Assembly (NCBI GenBank): GCA_005889225.1
Contig: VBEW01000016.1
Location: forward strand, 2,229 to 66,228
Reading direction: 5' to 3'
Length of the DNA: 64,000 bases
Source: Chloroflexota bacterium
GTDB lineage: Bacteria; Chloroflexota; Dormibacteria; CF-121
Below are positions 8,489 to 17,139 of the stretch, piece by piece (positions within the stretch are counted from its first letter, which is position 1; each line of letters opens with the position of its first letter). A program made the translations under genes and the position numbers. The notes under the pieces were generated by a model that ran no database searches, was not told the DNA's origin, and was given only the letters and a program-made list of their open reading frames with translations.

Positions 8489-9535
8489 ATGGCGCCCGCG
8501 GTTGATCTGGTCGAGCCGATCGAATCGGCGCGCGCCGCGGGACTCCGCTACGTCTCGGATCTGAGTCCTGGGATCCGCCGGAAGCGCGCCGGGAAGGGCT
8601 TCATGTATCGCAACAGCGAGGGCCGCACCGTCGATGACCGGGATACGATCCGGCGGATCAAAGGCCTGGCCGTGCCGCCGGCCTGGACCGATGTCTGGAT
8701 CTGCCCCAACCCGCACGGCCATCTGCAAGCGACGGGGCGCGACGCCAGGGGGCGCAAACAGTACCGCTATCACTTGCGCTGGCGCGAGGTTCGCGATGCC
8801 GTCAAGTACGACCGGATGGTGGCCTTTGCCGCGGCCCTGCCAGAGATCCGCGAGCAGACCGACCGCGACCTGGAACGGCCCGGCATGCCGCGAGAGAAGG
8901 TGCTGGCGGCGATTGTCCGGCTGCTCGAGGAGACCCGAATCCGAGTTGGCAATGAGGAGTATCGAAAGGAGAACGGCTCCTTCGGCCTGACAACCCTGCG
9001 AAACCGACATGTTGAAGTGATCGGCTCGGACGTGCACTTTAGCTTTCGGGGCAAGAGCGGCAAGCTGCATCGCGTCGACCTCCAGGACCGGAGGCTGGCG
9101 CGCATCCTCAAGCGATTCCTCGAGATCCCGGGCCAGGAGCTCTTCCAGTTTCTGGACGAAAGCGGAGAGGCCAAGCCCATCGACTCGGCCGATGTCAATG
9201 CCTACCTGCGCGACATCAGCGGCGAGGACTTCACCGCGAAAGACTTCCGCACCTGGGCCGGTACAATCCTCGCCGCCCGATTCCTGTGCGAGACGATCAC
9301 CAGGCCGAACACCCGTGGTGCCAAGAAGCATCTCGTCCGCGCGATCGCGCGGGTGGCCGACGAGCTCGGCAACACCCCGGCCGTGTGCAAAAAAGGCTAC
9401 ATCCATCCCGCGGTCATCGCCGCCTACCTCGCCGGCGGCTTGAAGCCCGTCAACGAGAAAGATGACGTTGATCCCTACCAGCTCTCCGCCGAAGAGCGCA
9501 GCCTGTTGGCCCTGCTCAGCGCCGAGGCGTCGTAA
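8489..9535 (+). CDS. DNA topoisomerase IB (poxvirus/eukaryotic-type, bacterial TopIB)
   Basis: ~348 aa; FRGKSGK, RTWAGT and C-terminal KKGYIHP (catalytic Tyr context) resemble bacterial TopIB such as Deinococcus enzyme. Confidence 0.75.
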   Translation: MAPAVDLVEPIESARAAGLRYVSDLSPGIRRKRAGKGFMYRNSEGRTVDDRDTIRRIKGLAVPPAWTDVWICPNPHGHLQATGRDARGRKQYRYHLRWREVRDAVKYDRMVAFAAALPEIREQTDRDLERPGMPREKVLAAIVRLLEETRIRVGNEEYRKENGSFGLTTLRNRHVEVIGSDVHFSFRGKSGKLHRVDLQDRRLARILKRFLEIPGQELFQFLDESGEAKPIDSADVNAYLRDISGEDFTAKDFRTWAGTILAARFLCETITRPNTRGAKKHLVRAIARVADELGNTPAVCKKGYIHPAVIAAYLAGGLKPVNEKDDVDPYQLSAEERSLLALLSAEAS

Positions 9536-10462: not shown

Positions 10463-10536
10463 CTTTCTCCCCTCCGGTGGGCCGCCCGCTAAAGTTAGGT
10501 TCGGGTGCCGATGCCGGAACATCGCAAGCGTATCTG

Positions 10537-11562
10537 ATGGCCCGACCACTCCGAGCGACGGAAAACGTCTCGGCGGAGATCAGTCGCAACCTGGCTCTCG
10601 AACTGGTCCGGGTGACCGAGGCGGGGGCGCTCGCCAGCGCCCGCTGGATGGGCCGCGGCGATAAGAACACTGCTGACGGTGCGGCCGTCGACGCCATGCG
10701 GCGGGCCCTCGGCATGATCCCGATGGACGGCGTGGTTGTCATCGGCGAGGGCGAGAAGGATGAGGCGCCCATGCTTTACATCGGTGAGAAGATCGGGACC
10801 GGCGACCCGCCCGAGGTTGACGTCGCCGTCGACCCGATCGACGGCACCACGCTACTGTCGAAGGGGCTTCCGAACGCGATCTCGGTGGTCGCCATGGCAG
10901 CCGGGCGAGGATCGCTCTACGACGCCAAGCACGTCGCCTACATGCACAAGATCGCGACCGGCGCCGACGCGTCCGGCACCCTGAACATCGAAGATCCTGT
11001 CGCCGCCAACCTGCAGCGGGTGGCCCGGGCCAAGCGGATGCGGGTCAGCAACCTGACCGTGGTTATCCTGGATCGGCCCCGGCATGAGGATCTGATCAAA
11101 GAAGTCCGCGAAACCGGGGCGCGCATCAAGTTGATCAGTGACGGCGATGTGGCCGGAGCCATGATGACGGCAATCGACGGTTCGGGACTCGACGTGCTGC
11201 TCGGGATCGGGGGCTCGCCCGAGGCGGTGCTGGCGGCGGCCGCGCTCAAATGCCTCGGCGGCGAGATTCAATGCAAGCTCTACGCCCGTAACCCTGAAGA
11301 GAAGGACAAGGCCGAGGCCGCCGGCGCCGACTTCGATCGGGTGCTGGGCATCGACGACCTGGTCCGCAGTGATGACGTCTTCTTCGCCGCGACCGGCGTT
11401 ACCGACGGCGAGGTCCTCCAGGGCGTGAAATATCACATGAACTGGGCGGAAACAGAATCGCTGGTCACACGTAGCCGTTCAGGCACCCTGCGGCGCATCT
11501 ACGCCCGCCACCACTGGGGATACAAACAGCGGGAGTGGCTCGGGCAGCCGGAGGAGGGCTAG
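10537..11562 (+). CDS. glpX: Fructose-1,6-bisphosphatase class II (GlpX)
   Basis: LALELVRVTEAGALASARWMGRGDKNTADGAAVDAMR and downstream GlpX blocks; ~342 aa. Confidence 0.85.
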   Translation: MARPLRATENVSAEISRNLALELVRVTEAGALASARWMGRGDKNTADGAAVDAMRRALGMIPMDGVVVIGEGEKDEAPMLYIGEKIGTGDPPEVDVAVDPIDGTTLLSKGLPNAISVVAMAAGRGSLYDAKHVAYMHKIATGADASGTLNIEDPVAANLQRVARAKRMRVSNLTVVILDRPRHEDLIKEVRETGARIKLISDGDVAGAMMTAIDGSGLDVLLGIGGSPEAVLAAAALKCLGGEIQCKLYARNPEEKDKAEAAGADFDRVLGIDDLVRSDDVFFAATGVTDGEVLQGVKYHMNWAETESLVTRSRSGTLRRIYARHHWGYKQREWLGQPEEG

Positions 11563-11573
11563 ACTGGCGAGCC

Positions 11574-13859
11574 CTAACTCTTTAGGGTCGTCTGCGCCGC
11601 ATTGAACGGAGAAACGACCGACTCGCCGCAGTGGAGGCAGTAGCGGGCGCCCTCGGGTAGCAGCCGGTGGCAGCGCGGGCAGAGATGCATGCCGCCATCG
11701 AGCGAAAACAGGAAGTCCGGCCAGGCATCGGCCGTCTCCGGCCCGACCAGCGTGACGGTGTCGAGCAGCTCATCGATCTCCTTGCCAACAAGTTCTTTCT
11801 TTTCGATCAAGACCCTCGCCAAGCGGTCGATGGCGTCCTTGTTCTTTACCATCAGACGCCAACAATCGACATAGGCGCTGCCCAGAATTTGCGCGACATC
11901 ACGCGCTTTTTCTCGATCCCGCAGAACGGTGGCGACGACGTTGGGATCACCCTGAGGCGCCTGCAAAGCGGCGGCCGCCGAAATCAGGCGATGGCCGATC
12001 ATTTCCGCGCGGAGGCTGTCCTCGTCATTTCGCCGGTCGGGACCCATCCCAAACACGCCCACCATGAGGGCGGCATCTCTCGTGGCAGACATGAGGTCGC
12101 CTGACACGCCCTGGCTGTTTTCGCCGTAGAAGACGCGCTCGACCGCGATACTTCCGATACCCCAGCGAAGATCCCCAGCCATTCGTGAGCGGAACTTGGA
12201 GAACGATTCTTCGGCGTCCACTGCCTGGTGGTGCCCAAGAGATCCTCCGCGTTTGCGGATCGATAGCCGGACCGATTTCATGTCGGGTATGAAGAAGCGA
12301 TTCGCCACGGCGTGACCCATCTCGTGCCGGGCAGTAGCCAGTGTTTCCCTCTCTGAGTATTGGATTGGCTCGGCGAGCCCTGCCTCGATATTCGCCATGG
12401 CCTCCCGAAGGTCTTCCCAAACAACGCCCTCGCGGCCGTGTTCGAAGGCGTACATCAGGCCGACGGAGAGTGCTTGCTGGATCATTGCTGGCGAGTAACC
12501 CTTCGTTATGCGAGCGAACTCGTCGCGCATGTCAGGTTCGTCGAGTCGCTTATCGTGGCGGACCCGGCTGAAGTAGAGGTCCGCGATGTCTTTGCGATCG
12601 TCGAAGTCCGGCATCTTGAATATGATCTGGCGTCCGAATCGGCCCGGACGGGTGACAGCCTCGTCAAGCACCTGCGGCCGATTGGTCGCCCCCATAAAGA
12701 AAATGTTGTAGCGGGGCGGTTTCAGCGGCGCCAAGCGCAGAGGAAGCGTGCGCTTGCCCAATCGGATCCGCTGCGGAATGATGAAGGTGGCGTCGAGAAG
12801 GGCGTTGACGGTCTTACGGATTGCCCGCCGGATGGCGCTCGGGTTATCGAGGCCATCCATGACGACGAGCAGCATGTTGAGCGCCATCATGCCGCCGCCG
12901 AACATGCCGCCCATCATCCCGCCGCCGCCCATCCCGGCGCGCCGGCTGCCGAGCGTGTCGAATTCGTCGATGAAGATGGCGCAGCCTCCCCACTTCTTCG
13001 CCCGCTTCTTTGCCATCCGGGACATCATCAGGACCTTGAGCACATCCATCCCGAGAAACATGCCGACAAAGGAGGCGCCCGAGGTGACCAGGATGGGCAG
13101 TTCCAGGGTGCTGGCGATCGCCTTGGCCAGCATGGTCTTCCCAGTCCCGGGCGGACCAACCATCAAGATGCCGCGCTCGCGCAGGCCGCCGGACTGAATG
13201 TACTTGTTCCCCTGCTCGATCAGGCGGAGGATTTTCTGCATTTCTTCGACGGCCGCCTTCTGGCCGCGGACATCCGACAGCCTGACCTGCCAGCTGGCGT
13301 CCCCCGGATCGCTGGGGTTCAGCCCCATGCGGGCATAGAGTAAGAACGGCCCGAAGAACAGCAGGAAGTTGGCGAGGAGAAGGGCGAGGACATAGATCAG
13401 CGACTGCAACATGCTGCCGATGAGGCCCGGCGCCGCCAGCAGCGCTGTTGTGGCGCTCAGATCGAGGACGACGACGTAGTAGCCCAGGTAGAGCGCCGTC
13501 AGCACGCTCAGCCAGAGGAGGCGGGTCCAGGTCGCGGCGCGGCCGACGTCGATGATGCGGCGCTCGCGCGAGGTGCGCTCGCGAATGATTTCGCGATTGA
13601 TCATGGCGCGCCGGAAGACCGTGAACAGGCCGCGCAGGTAGAGCATGGTGCCGGCCGCCAGCAGGAGGGACGTCACGATCGGGTAGCCGCGAATCAGCAG
13701 GAAGGTGAACATGCTGAGCCCGGTCCCCAGCCAGACTAGGGCGAGCAATGGGGTAAGGGCGCTGAAAGCTCGAGCGGTCACCGGCGGTTCGCTCGGCGGT
13801 AGTGCCGGCGGCGCGGGCGGGTCCGGCGGTTCGGGCGCGCGTAGGGTGGGATCTACCAT
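11574..13859 (-). CDS. Atypical FtsH-like membrane AAA+ / M41 zinc metalloprotease with C-terminal zinc ribbon
   Basis: 4-5 N-terminal TM helices without periplasmic domain; Walker A GPPGTGKT, Walker B IFIDEFD, Gly/Met-rich loop GMGGGGMMGGMFGGGMM, ~45-aa insertion before ATNRP, HEMGHAV zinc motif, C-terminal CPRCHRLL...CLHCG. Confidence 0.8.
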   Translation of the reverse strand: MVDPTLRAPEPPDPPAPPALPPSEPPVTARAFSALTPLLALVWLGTGLSMFTFLLIRGYPIVTSLLLAAGTMLYLRGLFTVFRRAMINREIIRERTSRERRIIDVGRAATWTRLLWLSVLTALYLGYYVVVLDLSATTALLAAPGLIGSMLQSLIYVLALLLANFLLFFGPFLLYARMGLNPSDPGDASWQVRLSDVRGQKAAVEEMQKILRLIEQGNKYIQSGGLRERGILMVGPPGTGKTMLAKAIASTLELPILVTSGASFVGMFLGMDVLKVLMMSRMAKKRAKKWGGCAIFIDEFDTLGSRRAGMGGGGMMGGMFGGGMMALNMLLVVMDGLDNPSAIRRAIRKTVNALLDATFIIPQRIRLGKRTLPLRLAPLKPPRYNIFFMGATNRPQVLDEAVTRPGRFGRQIIFKMPDFDDRKDIADLYFSRVRHDKRLDEPDMRDEFARITKGYSPAMIQQALSVGLMYAFEHGREGVVWEDLREAMANIEAGLAEPIQYSERETLATARHEMGHAVANRFFIPDMKSVRLSIRKRGGSLGHHQAVDAEESFSKFRSRMAGDLRWGIGSIAVERVFYGENSQGVSGDLMSATRDAALMVGVFGMGPDRRNDEDSLRAEMIGHRLISAAAALQAPQGDPNVVATVLRDREKARDVAQILGSAYVDCWRLMVKNKDAIDRLARVLIEKKELVGKEIDELLDTVTLVGPETADAWPDFLFSLDGGMHLCPRCHRLLPEGARYCLHCGESVVSPFNAAQTTLKS

Positions 13860-13866
13860 CGCTGGC

Positions 13867-14523
13867 TCATTTTCTCACCACTTCCGGGCTGATCTGTAAG
13901 CTCTGCCTTGCCAGACGCCAGCGGTAGATCACATAGGGACCAAGGCTGAGGAAGCCGCAGGTGATCGTGCCATGGACCAGCGTCACAGTCAGGAGAGAGG
14001 GTGGCTGCGGCTGCCAGAGATAGATCAGTCCGAGAGCCAGACCGGCGGCGGTCGCGCCAATGACGGGCCGCCAATCCCAGCGGTCCAGCAAGTGATACGC
14101 GCCAAAGACCGCCGTGGTCACCACGACCGCCGCGGCCGGCGCGTTCCACCACCGGCTCAGACCTCCCTGCATGAATCCCCGGAAGAACAACTCTTCAATC
14201 GGCGCGTTGAGGGCAAGATAGTAGACACTCTGGACGGCAAGGTCAGGACCGTCAGGCACGAACCAGTGCCGTCGACGCCGAGCGAGATATTCCGCGAACC
14301 AGGCAGCGATCACGAATCCGGCGAGCGCCAGGGGGATGCTGACGAGGAGATCGCGAATCGGATGGGCGAGCGTGACTCCAAGGGCGGTCACGGGGGTGCC
14401 GGTCAGCCGGATGAATATCAGGGGCACGATCGTCAGCGGGGCCAGCCGGATGAGAAGGTCGAGCCGCATCCATCGCCAGCTGTCGGCTACCGTCGTTCTA
14501 TACAGCACGCCCCGGGCGGCCAT
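13867..14523 (-). CDS. CPBP family intramembrane glutamic/metallo endopeptidase (CAAX protease / Abi family)
   Basis: EELFFRG and FGAYH motifs in polytopic membrane protein; 8-nt gap to FtsH-like gene. Confidence 0.75.
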   Translation of the reverse strand: MAARGVLYRTTVADSWRWMRLDLLIRLAPLTIVPLIFIRLTGTPVTALGVTLAHPIRDLLVSIPLALAGFVIAAWFAEYLARRRRHWFVPDGPDLAVQSVYYLALNAPIEELFFRGFMQGGLSRWWNAPAAAVVVTTAVFGAYHLLDRWDWRPVIGATAAGLALGLIYLWQPQPPSLLTVTLVHGTITCGFLSLGPYVIYRWRLARQSLQISPEVVRK

Positions 14524-15503
14524 TAGCTAACCGTCAGGTCGATACTGAGTGGTGGGCCGCCATTCGCCGCCGACATCGGTTCAGACGCCTCGCCTAGAAA
14601 GACCTGGACGGGAATTTGAAACCGTCCGGTCTCGCGAGGAAGGACGCCGATCAACAGGATCGTCTGGCCGCCAGGTGGCAGCGCGGTGGGGAATTCCAGG
14701 GTCTGGCCATCCGGGAGCACTCGTGCCTGACTCGACAGATAGCTGAACTCAAACGACGATTGGATCGCCGGGAAACGCAACCGGATGGCCTTGATCGCGA
14801 TTGGGCCGGTGTTGGCGACGTGGATCTGCCAGACGGCGACTTCGCTCATTGGAACCTGCGGCTCGTAGATCGCCGTCAAGCGCGCATCGGCGTCCGCATC
14901 GGTTGGCTCCCGGACTTTCGCCCCGAGGGCGAGCGTTGTCAGGATGCGGCCATCCGGTACCGCAACCCGGGCTGCCGTCGAGCCGCCATTCCTGGGCGTC
15001 AGTGTCAGGTCGATTTCTGAATCCATCGCCCTGGTCGGAACCAGGCTGACTGATAGCGTTTCAGTGCCTCCGGGAGGAATGACGCCGGCGAAGAAGATCG
15101 ACGTTCCGCTGATAGTGGCGGCCGATTCGGCCCCTGTGGCGCCCAGGACTCTCCAGCCCGGGTCCAGCCGACTGAAGCGCAACGTGAGTCCGTGCACCAC
15201 ACGTTGGTCTTGATTGTGGACGGTCAGGCTGAAGCTGAGCGGAACCCCGGAGATCTTTTGGTTGGATGACCAGATTGCGCTGGTCAGGGTGAGATCGTAA
15301 GGGGCGATTGTTGCTCCGGCACTGCGACCGAGTGACCGAATCGGGTTCCATAGGGCGACCGCGGCGCCGACCAGAATAACGAGAGCCGCCCCGAATGCGA
15401 CCCACGGCCAGGCGCGCGGCCGAGGCGCGTCGGTGAGCCCGCCGACGTACTCGACCGGCGGTTGGGTCGGCGGCTCAACTACCGGGTGGAGCGGCTCCTC
15501 CAT
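14523..15503 (-). CDS. Membrane-anchored protein with two tandem beta-sandwich (DUF11/CARDB-like) repeats
   Basis: N-terminal TM anchor; internal repeat LTLRFSRL...PPGGTETLSVSLVP / IRLRFPAI...PPGGQTILLIGVLP; overlaps CPBP gene start (operon). Confidence 0.55.
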   Translation of the reverse strand: MEEPLHPVVEPPTQPPVEYVGGLTDAPRPRAWPWVAFGAALVILVGAAVALWNPIRSLGRSAGATIAPYDLTLTSAIWSSNQKISGVPLSFSLTVHNQDQRVVHGLTLRFSRLDPGWRVLGATGAESAATISGTSIFFAGVIPPGGTETLSVSLVPTRAMDSEIDLTLTPRNGGSTAARVAVPDGRILTTLALGAKVREPTDADADARLTAIYEPQVPMSEVAVWQIHVANTGPIAIKAIRLRFPAIQSSFEFSYLSSQARVLPDGQTLEFPTALPPGGQTILLIGVLPRETGRFQIPVQVFLGEASEPMSAANGGPPLSIDLTVS

Positions 15504-15548
15504 GGCTACCTTCTACCATCTGCGGCGCCGGGTTGCGTCAGTCCGTCG

Positions 15549-15980
15549 CTACGACCTCGAGATCCCGGGCAGTACCGGCCGCTCGATCTCGATGGGAGCC
15601 GCATCGTCCACTGCCTCGATCTCCGCTTGCTCGATCCGGGCTTCGCGTCGCAGCAGACCCAGGAGGTCGTTCCACAGCCTCGTACCCAGCGCGATCAAAA
15701 CCGCGTCACCGGCCGCGTTGACGGCGTTGCGAGCCAGCGATGGCGGCCTGCCATCGACATCTGCCAGCAGGTGGGGGCGGTAGACGGCCGCGAGGACGAT
15801 CCCGACCGAGGTCTCCACGCATCGGCGGCAATGCACGAACTCATCGAGGCGCGGATGGACTGTGGAGAGCCGGCGGCGAGCTGGCTCGAAGATTCCGCCC
15901 TCCACGAAGGTGCAGCTGAGCTGGTGGCCGATCGCGGCGAGGAAAAAGAAACGCAGCATCGCCCGGCCGAGGCTCATCAT
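15549..15980 (-). CDS. Hypothetical protein translationally coupled to marR (ATGA overlap)
   Basis: ATG overlaps marR stop; Cys/His-containing N-terminus (SCTFVEGG...HCRRC); no family recognised. Confidence 0.4.
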   Translation of the reverse strand: MMSLGRAMLRFFFLAAIGHQLSCTFVEGGIFEPARRRLSTVHPRLDEFVHCRRCVETSVGIVLAAVYRPHLLADVDGRPPSLARNAVNAAGDAVLIALGTRLWNDLLGLLRREARIEQAEIEAVDDAAPIEIERPVLPGISRS

Positions 15981-16450
15981 TTCGAGCTTACCCGATCGCC
16001 GGTCAAGGGCTCGAGCGCGTCGGCGAGCTCGTCGAGCTGGGCGGGCGAAAGCCGCCGGGCGAAGTGCTGCCGGACGCCGCGCAGGTGTAAGGGTCGCGCC
16101 CGGCGGAGCCGCGCGGTGCCTTCCGTTGTCAGGATCGCCCAGGTCCCGCGACGGTCGGTGGCGCAGTTTCCCCGTTTGACCAGTCCGGCCCGAACCAGCC
16201 GGTCGACGAGCCGCGTGATCCCGCTGGGGCTCAGTCGAACGCGCTCGGACAGGTCACTCATGCGCAGCCGGCCATCCTCGGCGCGCCCGAGCTGCGCGAG
16301 GACGTCGAATTCGGCCAACGTCATCCCCTCGCCGGCGACCAACTCAGCCTCCAGGCGGCGCAACAGGGTCGCCTGGGCGTCCAGGAAGGCGCGCCAGGCC
16401 CGCAATTCAGCCGGTTTCAGTTCACTCCCCACGGGAATATATTGCCCCAT
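15977..16450 (-). CDS. MarR family transcriptional regulator
   Basis: wHTH block MTLAEFDVLAQLGRAEDGRLRMSDLSERVRLSPSGITRLVDRLVRAGLVKR; track ORF N-terminal extension is artefact; ATG at 16450. Confidence 0.8.
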   Translation of the reverse strand: MGQYIPVGSELKPAELRAWRAFLDAQATLLRRLEAELVAGEGMTLAEFDVLAQLGRAEDGRLRMSDLSERVRLSPSGITRLVDRLVRAGLVKRGNCATDRRGTWAILTTEGTARLRRARPLHLRGVRQHFARRLSPAQLDELADALEPLTGDRVSSK

Positions 16451-16454
16451 TAGT

Positions 16455-16487
16455 TTGTTGCTTTGAGTAATGTTGCTCACGCAACAA
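16455..16487. promoter_or_regulatory. Candidate MarR operator: palindrome TGTTGC-tcac-GCAACA (16471-16486) plus upstream half-site TTGTTGC (16455-16461)
   Basis: Perfect 6-4-6 inverted repeat in 60-bp divergent intergenic region between marR and yceI. Confidence 0.35.
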
Positions 16488-16510: not shown

Positions 16511-17089
16511 ATGAAGTGGGCAATTGACGCCTATCACACGAGTGTCACGTTCACGATTCGACACATGATGTCGAGGGTGCGTGGCGAGATGAAACTCAAG
16601 GAGGGGTGGATCGACACCGACAGTGACAACCTGAGCAACGCCAGCGTGGAGGTCGTGCTCGATCCGGCGACCATCAACACCGGCGTGGAGATGCGGGACA
16701 ACCACCTGCGCAGCGCCGACGGTCACTTTGACGTGGCGAATTATCCGACGATTACGTTCAAAAGCACGCGAGTCGAAGGGACGGACCCCTCGCACTTCAA
16801 GGTCATCGGCGATCTGACGATTCACGGGCTTACCAGGGAAGTCACGCTCCACGCCGGTTTCACCGGTGAAGTCAAGGATCCCTGGGGTAACCGCCGCATC
16901 GGGTTTTCCGCCGAGACGAAGGTGTACCGCAAGGACTTCAATCTCACCTGGAACCAGGCGCTGGAAGCCGGCGGGTTCGTCGTCGGGGACGAGGTGAAGC
17001 TGGATATCGACGTCGAGGCGGTGCCGGCCAAGACCCCCGCCGAGGCCAAAGAAGAGATCGAAGCCGAGGCCGCGCTCGAGTCTCGCTAG
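16511..17089 (+). CDS. YceI family (polyisoprenoid-binding) protein
   Basis: YceI-like profile (WAIDAYHTSVTFTIRHMM..., GDLTIHG); SD GGGAGGA upstream. Confidence 0.8.
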   Translation: MKWAIDAYHTSVTFTIRHMMSRVRGEMKLKEGWIDTDSDNLSNASVEVVLDPATINTGVEMRDNHLRSADGHFDVANYPTITFKSTRVEGTDPSHFKVIGDLTIHGLTREVTLHAGFTGEVKDPWGNRRIGFSAETKVYRKDFNLTWNQALEAGGFVVGDEVKLDIDVEAVPAKTPAEAKEEIEAEAALESR

Positions 17090-17108
17090 ACGACTCCCCT
17101 TCATGCAC

Positions 17109-17139
17109 AGCCCGCCAGTACGATGGCGGGCTGTTTTTT
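17109..17139 (+). terminator. Rho-independent terminator (AGCCCGCCA-gtacga-TGGCGGGCT + TGTTTTTTG)
   Basis: 9-bp stem followed by T-tract directly after yceI stop. Confidence 0.65.

Follow-up and report, generated by a model that had tools for sequence, protein, structure and literature searches.

A MarR-linked operon of Dormibacteraeota in which a CPBP-family protease gene precedes a non-canonical FtsH paralog

Results and discussion

The 64-kb stretch of DNA analysed here (hereafter the window), from a soil-dwelling member of the candidate phylum Dormibacteraeota, contains an operon whose last two genes encode a CPBP/Rce1-like (Abi) intramembrane protease and an unusual, undescribed variant of FtsH. 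The reading that we favour, with about as much doubt as conviction, is that this is a chromosomal accessory operon for membrane proteolysis, probably stress-inducible, rather than a housekeeping locus, and that the CPBP protein may act as partner to the FtsH paralog. Its accessory nature is evident from the loss of the FtsH-like gene in close relatives.

Five minus-strand ORFs (Table 1) are tightly packed, and their coordinates, overlaps and short gaps agree with those in the preliminary description of this DNA: the 143-aa ORF starts before marR has ended, 45 nt separate that ORF from the 326-aa gene, 1 nt is shared by the stop of the 326-aa gene and the start of the CPBP gene, and 7 nt lie between the CPBP and FtsH-like genes. 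No convincing internal terminator was found in the five-gene stretch. Base composition is that of the rest of the window, GC content is unremarkable, and the context is core-chromosomal. All the sequence details quoted in that description were found (RRAGMGGGGMMGGMFGGGMMA, DNPSAIRR...LKPPRY with 47 aa, HEMGH, and CPRC...CLHC), and a Pfam search supported its assignments (AAA, 6e-25; Peptidase_M41, 8e-19; Rce1-like, 3e-16; MarR_2, 6.5e-16).

Table 1. Features of the operon and its divergent neighbour (window positions)
Feature	Position	Strand	Evidence
Non-canonical FtsH paralog, 761 aa, AAA+ ATPase and M41 zinc metalloprotease, clade A	11574..13859	-	Pfam
C-terminal C4 zinc ribbon, CPRC-x10-CLHC	11628..11681	-	Zn_Ribbon_1 1.4e-4 (below Pfam cut-off)
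HEMGH zinc-binding/catalytic motif, M41 domain	12312..12326	-	HExGH in 64/64 clade A, 51/51 clade B
47-aa insertion, alpha3 helix to sensor-1 strand	12708..12848	-	Alignment gap
Gly/Met-rich extended pore-2 loop (RRAGMGGGGMMGGMFGGGMMA)	12882..12944	-	Alignment with canonical FtsH
N-terminal membrane anchor, ca. residues 36-177, four long helices	13329..13754	-	AF2 and hydrophobicity
CPBP/Rce1-like glutamic intramembrane protease, 218 aa	13867..14523	-	PF02517 3.3e-16
Membrane-anchored protein, two Ig-like beta-sandwich domains, 326 aa	14523..15503	-	Structure model
Small protein gene, 143 aa here, 59 aa in L081	15549..15980	-	Codon-position GC, L081 homology
MarR-family transcriptional regulator, 157 aa	15977..16450	-	MarR_2 6.5e-16, MarR 4e-11
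Perfect inverted repeat TGTTGC-N4-GCAACA, candidate MarR operator	16471..16486	.	marR/yceI intergenic region
Divergent YceI-like protein	16511..17089	+	PF04264 2.3e-45

The FtsH paralog and its relatives

The FtsH-like protein has in common with FtsH (MEROPS M41, TIGR01241) the order of membrane anchor, one classical-clade AAA module and M41 protease, together with Walker A/B, the pore-1 aromatic-hydrophobic-Gly motif, sensor-1, the Arg fingers, HExxH and the downstream acidic ligands. Walker A, Walker B, pore-1 MFLG, sensor-1, the Arg fingers, HEMGH, E574 and D588 show no variation among 30 homologs, and with all its catalytic motifs kept the protein is apparently an active protease. That it is not a canonical FtsH, as had been claimed, is clear from its score on TIGR01241 (251 bits vs a cut-off of 600) and from an identity of ca. 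25% (24-26%) to its nearest solved structures, FtsH, AFG3L2 and YME1. The AF2 model has the FtsH fold, at moderate confidence (pLDDT 69, pTM 0.44).

Four departures from the canonical enzyme stand out. Where canonical FtsH has two TM helices and a periplasmic domain, the model presents four long N-terminal helices (residues 27-56, 61-88, 98-131 and 136-177, with hydrophobic segments at 38-56, 61-79, 114-132 and 154-172) and no periplasmic domain, consistent with the four or five TM helices counted earlier; the loop joining helices 2 and 3 is probably cytoplasmic, since it is Arg-rich. In alignments, RRAGMGGGGMMGGMFGGGMMA stands at the position of GAGLGGGHDEREQT in canonical FtsH, so that the pore-2 loop is Met/Gly-rich and lacks the acidic DERE stretch; this loop is kept in clades A and B (see below) and is disordered in the model. 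The insertion, previously estimated at about 45 aa, has 47: alignments to solved FtsH structures break at, and skip, residues 342-384, and the distance from Walker B to sensor-1 is 88-93 aa in the clade of the window protein vs 35-44 aa in canonical FtsH. It is modelled as a helix (342-357) and a beta-hairpin (364-373) with pLDDT 63-75, and like the C-terminal C4 ribbon it is absent from canonical FtsH.

Clade A comprises 64 full-length ribbon-bearing relatives, 67-100% identical and found in Dormibacteraeota only. The ribbon is present in all 64 and in none of the 51 proteins of the sister clade B (ca. 55% identity), and those representatives of the wider family that were scored among the top 150 all lack it. 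Clade B proteins have the same anchor, Gly/Met loop and insertion, but lack the ribbon and also the Pro-rich N-terminal extension. They too have a small polytopic membrane gene at their start; this partner is DUF5317 (PF17248), abutting or overlapping the clade B start, instead of CPBP, and hhalign detected no relationship between the two (probability 0.6%). A membrane partner at this position is therefore a recurring theme. The clade B locus has a conserved core context, with MerR/Rv1828_C, menaquinone genes, an M20 peptidase, response regulators and SLT, and a scan of species-representative genomes recovered, of the two clades, clade B and not clade A. The wider non-canonical family, which is uncharacterised, extends to Chloroflexota, Actinomycetota and phage-like contigs, and some members carry inteins. 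Source records label it 'ATP-dependent Zn protease'.

The CPBP gene and its pairing with the FtsH-like gene

The CPBP protein matches PF02517 well above threshold (59.8 bits vs a cut-off of 22.4), with motif 1 (EExxxR, here EELFFR) and motif 2 (FxxxH, here FGAYH) present and the Glu/His/His set intact. Motif 3 retains its His but has Thr in place of Asn throughout the subfamily (HxxxT vs HxxxN of the family), which makes the activity of the protein uncertain. It falls far below every Mrt equivalog cut-off of the NCBIfam Mrt-type sorting proteases, and no C-terminal sorting-signal partner was identified for it.

The five readable loci of clade A (the window, L081, L084, L091 and L092), which represent four different upstream contexts, all have the CPBP gene directly upstream of the ribbon-bearing FtsH-like gene, at 7-60 nt; about ten further contigs appear to hold both genes, since contigs of identical length occur in the two match lists. 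A search of a literature library found no description of a CPBP protease paired with a ribbon-bearing FtsH paralog, in keeping with the preliminary description. Adjacency alone is nevertheless weak evidence of a functional link, because clade A is narrow (at least 67% identity) and the flanks, with a convergent glpX, an acyltransferase and Top1B, are conserved too; the adjacency and general synteny cannot be told fully apart. Moreover, an orthologous CPBP gene (ca. 70% identity) lies directly before glpX without an FtsH-like gene in four other loci (L095-L098). Since these are nested inside the FtsH-bearing group in the glpX tree (the glpX of L097 is 96% identical to that of L081), the FtsH-like gene has been lost there and the CPBP gene kept, so that CPBP is independent of the FtsH-like gene. 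The proposed conservation of the adjacency thus held by half: in clade A the FtsH-like gene is always beside CPBP, whereas CPBP stands alone in L095-L098 and clade B genes lie beside DUF5317. The link is lineage-specific and not obligatory.

Upstream genes and a candidate operator

The tandem beta-sandwich membrane protein anticipated from the sequence was recovered in a high-confidence model (pLDDT 88), with a TM helix followed by the two sandwiches. The 143-aa ORF, without a family match among Pfam and NCBIfam profiles, has a coding-like codon-position GC (0.71/0.47/0.82) and is taken to be a real gene of variable length, because both its N-terminus (M.LGR..LRF) and its C-terminus (VLPGIS.RS) are shared with the shorter gene of L081, an 85%-identical locus. 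The marR coordinates take in the last 157 aa of an ORF that, as called mechanically, is longer.

Orthologs of marR are found at this place in L081, L095 and L097, but marR and the beta-sandwich gene are absent from L084, L091 and L092 (three of the five clade A contexts), both being confined to the sub-lineage of the window. The earlier label 'MarR-linked' is correct for that sub-lineage only, and the MarR link of the FtsH-like gene is lineage-specific rather than obligatory. Between marR and CPBP lies a variable slot, occupied by the small and beta-sandwich protein genes, by MFS and Dabb genes, or by nothing; the MFS transporter inside the marR-led operon of L095 fits a MarR-type stress/efflux regulon. 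The 60-nt divergent marR/yceI intergenic region carries the palindrome, which has a single match in the window (0.09 expected by chance) and is found at the same position in L081, L095 and L097, four loci with the window; we infer that it is a candidate operator bound by MarR. The yceI-marR pair is kept in the same three loci, a strong terminator-like hairpin (17107-17134) follows yceI, and yceI is probably co-regulated with the operon.

Alternative readings of the locus

A less probable, though still substantial, alternative is that the two proteases are not coupled: the FtsH-like protein would be an independent accessory quality-control protease, derived by duplication from clade B and placed beside a resident CPBP gene in a syntenic block, and MarR would regulate yceI and its own small operon, with incidental read-through into the protease genes. 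The solitary CPBP genes at the same site in L095-L098, the equally good conservation of glpX, acyltransferase and Top1B around the pair, the variability of the marR-CPBP region and the unrelated neighbours of distant family members (L004, L005, L008 and L100) all favour it. On the other hand, the CPBP/FtsH-like junction, with its gap of 7-60 nt, stays intact through four changes of the gene directly upstream of CPBP, acquisition of the ribbon coincides exactly with CPBP adjacency, and in clade B a membrane protein has independently been retained at this position.

It is unlikely that the locus is an Abi-type defence or toxin-immunity module acting against phage or bacteriocin, an idea for which the comparison gave no support. 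The CPBP/Abi family does include abortive-infection and bacteriocin-immunity factors, loss in close relatives gives the patchy presence typical of defence genes, and members of the wider FtsH-like family occur on phage-like contigs (L099 and L101). But PADLOC gave no match for CPBP and none but generic ones to AAA-core (IetA) and wHTH, the locus has a fixed syntenic position and does not differ in composition from the remaining window, toxin and bacteriocin genes are missing from its surroundings, and L081 has housekeeping neighbours (glpX, amidase, 5'-3' exonuclease) and no integrase, transposase or defence-island neighbour.

Least probable of all is that this is the housekeeping FtsH of the organism in a divergent form peculiar to the phylum and among unrelated neighbours, for although its catalytic motifs are intact, its family bears the protease label mentioned above and no other FtsH homolog lies within the window, the gene is, unlike canonical FtsH, dispensable, being cleanly lost in close relatives where glpX is 86-96% identical, it scores far short of the FtsH equivalog cut-off, and it is clade B, not clade A, that sits in a conserved core context and was recovered from representative genomes.

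Comparison with known systems

The rhomboid YqgP serves as an FtsH adaptor in Bacillus subtilis (PMC7231995), and likewise associates an intramembrane protease with a membrane AAA+ protease; it provides a model in which clipping or presentation by one protease licenses processive degradation by the other. YqgP is, however, a rhomboid serine protease with canonical FtsH as partner, whereas CPBP is a glutamic protease, and that link was established by proteomics and biochemistry, whereas here there is gene adjacency alone. The MoxR-vWA-FtsH ternary conflict systems (Kaur et al. 2020, PMC7159879) also employ a divergent FtsH-type AAA+ protein outside the housekeeping role, but they need MoxR and vWA partner genes and include a protein that has a pair of FtsH-type AAA domains, of which the first is inactive; the operon in the window has neither of these partners nor such a double-domain protein.

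A possible function for the operon

In the favoured reading, of an accessory membrane-proteolysis operon, the conserved core is the CPBP gene followed within 7-60 nt by the lineage-specific FtsH paralog, placed in the window at the distal end of an operon for MarR, the small protein, the Ig-like ectodomain protein, CPBP and the FtsH-like protein. The promoter region is common to the operon and the divergent yceI; this shared region and its conserved palindrome suggest that MarR most likely represses expression, and a ligand or stress signal would release it.

The FtsH paralog should act like FtsH, because all residues for ATP hydrolysis, threading and zinc proteolysis are kept: as a hexamer, it would degrade proteins that lie in the membrane or are associated with it, after threading them through its pore. 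The ClpX zinc-binding domain docks substrates or adaptors, and the cytoplasmic C4 ribbon could do the same. The flexible pore-2 loop, Met/Gly-rich where that of FtsH is acidic, might suit a grip on hydrophobic segments, and the compact four-helix anchor, without the periplasmic domain that canonical FtsH exposes, and the helix and beta-hairpin insertion before sensor-1 may likewise have functional consequences. The coupling proposed from gene order is that CPBP, by analogy with YqgP, would clip or present membrane substrates to the FtsH paralog, whose special features may give it a different clientele or a different regulation from those of canonical FtsH.

Organization of the marR-led gene array

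The ORF map of the window places five ORFs in a head-to-tail array, all on the minus strand, which confirms the tight packing of five genes noted in the preliminary description, at the coordinates collected in the table. The G+C content is 62-70% across the window, and the operon region shows no compositional anomaly. Homologs with a source name come from Candidatus Dormibacteraeota. A Pfam search gave only a sub-threshold hint of DUF11 for the 326-aa beta-sandwich protein and no match for the 143-aa ORF. Since the latter has a coding-type GC distribution by codon position, and both of its termini match those of a 59-aa gene found at the equivalent place in L081 (a locus whose FtsH-like protein is 85% identical to that of the window), it can be taken from its sequence as a real but variable gene. 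No convincing terminator was found within the operon, nor any sigma-70-type promoter between positions 11000 and 17200 in a scan that is uninformative for this phylum. Further downstream, a 348-aa ORF is the positional counterpart of the Top1B_N_bact/Topoisom_I gene of the homologous loci L081, L084 and L091 and, judged by this position, would encode a type IB topoisomerase of the bacterial kind, kept in this syntenic block.

Coordinates of features in the window and, where a locus is named, in homologous loci of other contigs
Feature	Location	Strand	Observation
MarR-family regulator, 157 aa	15977-16450	-	winged-helix domain; Pfam MarR_2 6.5e-16, MarR 4e-11
143-aa ORF	15549-15980	-	start overlaps marR stop
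326-aa protein	14523-15503	-	45-nt gap before
CPBP protein, 218 aa	13867-14523	-	start overlaps preceding stop by 1 nt
FtsH-like protein, 761 aa	11574-13859	-	7-nt gap before
YceI gene	16511-17089	+	Pfam YceI; divergent from marR across 60 nt
glpX	10477-11562	+	convergent with FtsH-like gene
348-aa ORF	8489-9535	+
Palindrome TGTTGC-N4-GCAACA	16471-16486		marR-yceI intergenic region
Variable segment, marR to CPBP	15504-15980
Variable segment, marR to CPBP	L081:6095-6350
Variable segment, marR to CPBP	L095:3198-4945
Variable segment, marR to CPBP	L097:4986-5001
Clade B gene block (example)	L085:4804-11691
617-aa family member	L008:7860-9713		Ktedonobacter robiniae SOSP1-30
P0316, family member	L099:5928-8075		Logan contig SRR21686409_2371
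Relative of P0316	L101:5001-7070		IMG/VR viral contig
Relative of P0316	L102:5001-6308		IMG/VR viral contig

The description of the operon as MarR-linked holds for only some of the loci: the window, L081, L095 and L097 have both marR and yceI, and L084, L091 and L092 have neither. In L097 marR directly precedes the CPBP gene, and in L095 the two are separated by the genes of an MFS transporter and a Dabb protein. The perfect palindrome in the marR-yceI intergenic region is unique in the window, where 0.09 matches would be expected by chance, and since each of the four loci with marR preserves it, it is a plausible candidate for the MarR operator. Between marR and CPBP, genomes that are otherwise syntenic have a variable slot, filled by a small protein (59 or 143 aa, with only the two ends conserved) plus the beta-sandwich protein, by the MFS transporter and the Dabb protein, or by nothing.

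The FtsH-like protein combines an FtsH-type core with unusual features

Pfam identified in the 761-aa protein a single AAA module (6e-25) and a Peptidase_M41 domain (8e-19), and the best fold matches were solved structures of FtsH, AFG3L2 and YME1, at 24-26% identity. As in FtsH, the AAA module is of the classical type, with a pore-1 motif made of an aromatic residue, a hydrophobic one and Gly, and the M41 domain bears HExxH with a downstream acidic third zinc ligand. All the elements by which the AAA module was judged (Walker A GPPGTGKT, Walker B DExD, the sensor-1 Asn and the arginines of the second region of homology) are present, and the residues G235-T242 (Walker A), D298-E299 (Walker B), N393 (sensor-1) and R404 and R407 (Arg fingers) are invariant in 30 aligned homologs. 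The same 30 homologs share the zinc site, H512-E513-x-x-H516 (HExGH), E574 and D588, as well as F268 and G270 of the pore-1 loop, M267-F268-L269-G270, which aligns to the MFVG of FtsH. Because its catalytic motifs are invariant, the enzyme should be active.

Unlike FtsH, the protein falls below the cut-offs of the curated equivalogs (251 bits on TIGR01241, cut-off 600; 163 on NF008004, cut-off 1008) and lacks a periplasmic domain between two TM helices. Hydrophobicity and the AF2 model indicate an N-terminal anchor of four long helices joined by loops of up to ~10 residues. Where FtsH has an acidic pore-2 loop, the alignment shows the Gly/Met-rich loop RRAGMGGGGMMGGMFGGGMMA. A 47-aa insertion sits between 'MDGL' and the sensor-1 strand, where canonical FtsH alignments skip from residue 342 to residue 384, so that the spacing from Walker B to sensor-1 is 88-93 aa vs 35-44 aa in canonical FtsH. 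It is modeled by AF2 as a helix followed by a beta-hairpin (pLDDT 63-75 there, 69 overall), and from AAA+ topology we infer that it occupies the pre-sensor-1 position; we know of no such insertion as a feature of classical-clade AAA+ proteins. The C-terminus carries a zinc ribbon, CPRC-x10-CLHC. The loop, the insertion, the anchor devoid of a periplasmic domain and the ribbon, all of which had been noticed in the window sequence, are thus borne out by sequence, alignment and model.

The CPBP protease

The CPBP protein scored 59.8 bits against Pfam PF02517, whose gathering cut-off is 22.4 (Rce1-like, 3e-16). Motif 1 (E110-E111...R115) and motif 2 (F140...H144) are invariant in 7 orthologs, and EExFFRG is found in 120 of 120 members of the subfamily. 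Motif 3 of CPBP/Rce1-like proteins is HxxxN/D; here it is H184-x-x-x-T188, with Thr in 119 of the 120 members. A subfamily profile compared with PDB sequences in order to map the catalytic residues on Rce1 gave no significant match, and the motifs are therefore assigned by the Pfam match and by the established pattern of the family.

Conservation of the pairing between CPBP and the FtsH-like protein

Close homologs of the FtsH-like protein split into two clades. Members of clade A, which includes the window protein, are 67-100% identical to it and ~750-775 aa long, and the ribbon is present in 64 of 64 full-length members. Those of clade B (~55% identity, ~703 aa) have the same anchor, loop and insertion, and the ribbon in none of 51. 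Wherever the upstream DNA of a clade A locus could be read, the FtsH-like gene is immediately preceded by a CPBP gene of the same strand. What comes before CPBP differs: marR, the small ORF and the beta-sandwich gene in the window and L081, an opposite-strand methyltransferase gene in L084, an opposite-strand Clp_N gene in L091, and CHAP, DUF1360 and Dabb in L092. Contigs of equal length in the match lists of the two proteins suggest some ten further pairs on one contig. We conclude that the ribbon-bearing paralog and the CPBP adjacency came into being together. In clade B, the FtsH-like gene is preceded by DUF5317, a polytopic protein of 167-183 aa, with a gap of 45 nt at most or an overlap, so that both clades repeat the pattern of a small membrane protein encoded just before the FtsH-like one. 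A partner family shared by the two clades was considered and rejected, CPBP and DUF5317 giving an hhalign probability of 0.6%.

The main rival explanation is that CPBP and the FtsH-like protein are functionally independent neighbors. The loci L095/L096 and L097/L098 have an orthologous CPBP (~70% identity) at the same syntenic position, with glpX coming right after it, and neither an FtsH-like gene nor a remnant of one was found in them; their gene order is amidase, yceI, marR, further genes, CPBP, glpX, acyltransferase and Top1B. In a tree of glpX these loci fall within the group that has the FtsH-like gene, L097 being 96% identical to L081, and all of the outgroups, L084, L090, L091 and L092, have it too; the simplest history is therefore that the FtsH-like gene was lost and CPBP retained. 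CPBP is therefore not dependent on the FtsH paralog, and the adjacency may reflect the general synteny of a narrow lineage. The pairing put forward in the preliminary description is thus upheld from the FtsH side, by all readable clade A loci, and fails from the CPBP side.

It is unlikely that the FtsH-like protein is the housekeeping FtsH, since its gene has been lost in very close relatives and the conserved core context, beside a MerR/Rv1828_C gene, is held by clade B. An anti-phage or Abi-type role, which had been suggested for the operon, is also unlikely: PADLOC gave only generic matches, of the AAA core (residues 200-308) to IetA and of wHTH domains, with none for CPBP, and the neighbors of the L081 locus are housekeeping genes. 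The MoxR-vWA-FtsH ternary conflict systems described by Kaur et al. (PMC7159879) combine neighboring MoxR and vWA genes with a protein that has two FtsH-type AAA domains; such a system was rejected, since the protein has one AAA module and no MoxR or vWA gene occurs in the window region or in L081-L094, and the absence of these partners also speaks against defence. The preliminary observation is thus confirmed, and its interpretation supported in part.

A wider family of non-canonical FtsH proteins

When 1.84 billion cluster representatives were searched exhaustively, a much wider non-canonical FtsH family emerged beyond clades A and B, with 33-49% identity and 600-1140 aa, whose members have the pre-sensor-1 insertion and pore-2 loops that are either Gly/Met-rich or greatly expanded. 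The ribbon was found in none of the scorable representatives within the top 150. The CPBP pairing and the ribbon are a lineage-specific elaboration. Among the named carriers of the family are Ktedonobacter robiniae, a Chloroflexi MAG and a Cellulomonas MAG. A profile search of genome contigs, based on the family alignment and generic P-loop patterns, gave mostly canonical FtsH among the matches listed, of which L001-L005 and L008 were informative. A literature search rendered nothing on this family, nothing on DUF5317 and no description of a module of CPBP and an FtsH-like protein. Uncharacterised and different from FtsH in structure, this family is found widely in Terrabacteria-type phyla and is of more interest than the MarR-linked protease operon.

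The clade B gene block is strongly conserved in L085-L089 and L001-L003, in the order GAF/PAS histidine kinase, two response regulators, M20 peptidase, DUF5317, FtsH-like protein, SLT transglycosylase, MerR/Rv1828_C and menaquinone-type genes. The L002 contig (DASPYG010000163.1) is labelled Candidatus Nitrosopolaris sp., an ammonia-oxidising archaeon, and bears a typical Dormibacteraeota clade B locus (response regulator, M20, DUF5317, FtsH-like, SLT, MerR), so it is probably mis-binned. A MerR/Rv1828_C gene is likewise found beside the gene of P0318 (828 aa, locus L100), a distant member of the family with neighbors of actinobacterial look.

The member from K. robiniae SOSP1-30, a named Chloroflexota strain whose genome is not a MAG (locus at ~2.69 Mb of NZ_BNJG01000001.1), has 617 aa, the Gly/Met-rich loop NMGMGGMGGMFGGGNGG and the pre-sensor-1 insertion. 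Its neighbors are unlike those of the window, with a single-TM protein upstream and, downstream, a protein that looks PMT_2-like from its sequence. Two long members, P0311 (1140 aa) and P0314 (1090 aa), contain putative intein-like insertions of ~380 aa, with Cys and His-Asn at their boundaries. One insertion interrupts the lid region, between 'ITNGYAQ' and 'SPAMIEQ', and the other follows the P-loop helix, between 'ATGFNC' and 'CPFVSIPG'. P0316, 44% identical to the window protein, is encoded on an 89-kb contig amid phage-type genes (Phage_integrase, Phage_portal, a 1199-aa protein and DUF6011), and relatives 57-60% identical to it occur on IMG/VR viral contigs of up to 94 kb. A search of cultured-phage genomes with the protein found no close relative, only canonical FtsH of <30% identity, and many of these matches are probably from host DNA.

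Possible mechanism and significance

The five genes are probably co-transcribed from a MarR-controlled promoter. The FtsH paralog would be a hexamer that degrades membrane proteins, with a compact anchor and a Met-rich pore loop that perhaps adapt it to hydrophobic substrates. By analogy with the zinc-binding domain of ClpX, the ribbon could serve as a docking module, and CPBP could be a partner of the paralog in the way of the rhomboid YqgP, which serves as an FtsH adaptor (PMC7231995). The present pair is known from gene adjacency, which is not obligatory. We consider it improbable that CPBP and the zinc-ribbon paralog form a dedicated two-protease machine, in which intramembrane cleavage or capture by CPBP would license the extraction of hydrophobic substrates through the Met-lined pore and the ribbon would have a docking or regulatory role, and that the family is at the same time an overlooked functional class of membrane AAA+ proteases, marked by an anchor of four TM helices, a pore-2 loop that is rich in Met or greatly expanded, and the insertion before sensor-1, and present in Dormibacteraeota, Chloroflexota, Actinomycetota and phage-like contigs. 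If the pairing is functional, it would be a second partnership of an intramembrane protease and an AAA+ protease, after that of FtsH with the rhomboid YqgP. Otherwise the locus is simply a MarR-led operon of variable content, in an uncultured phylum, that includes the gene of an accessory protease.

[quoted passage not shown] Three features of the non-canonical family are undescribed for FtsH, namely the Met/Gly-rich pore-2 loop, the pre-sensor-1 insertion and the dropped periplasmic domain, and these structural departures bear on substrate handling. The family is therefore a natural test of how the chemistry of the pore and the mode of anchoring in the membrane determine the clientele of such a protease, and the member from K. 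robiniae SOSP1-30 makes it open to experiment.
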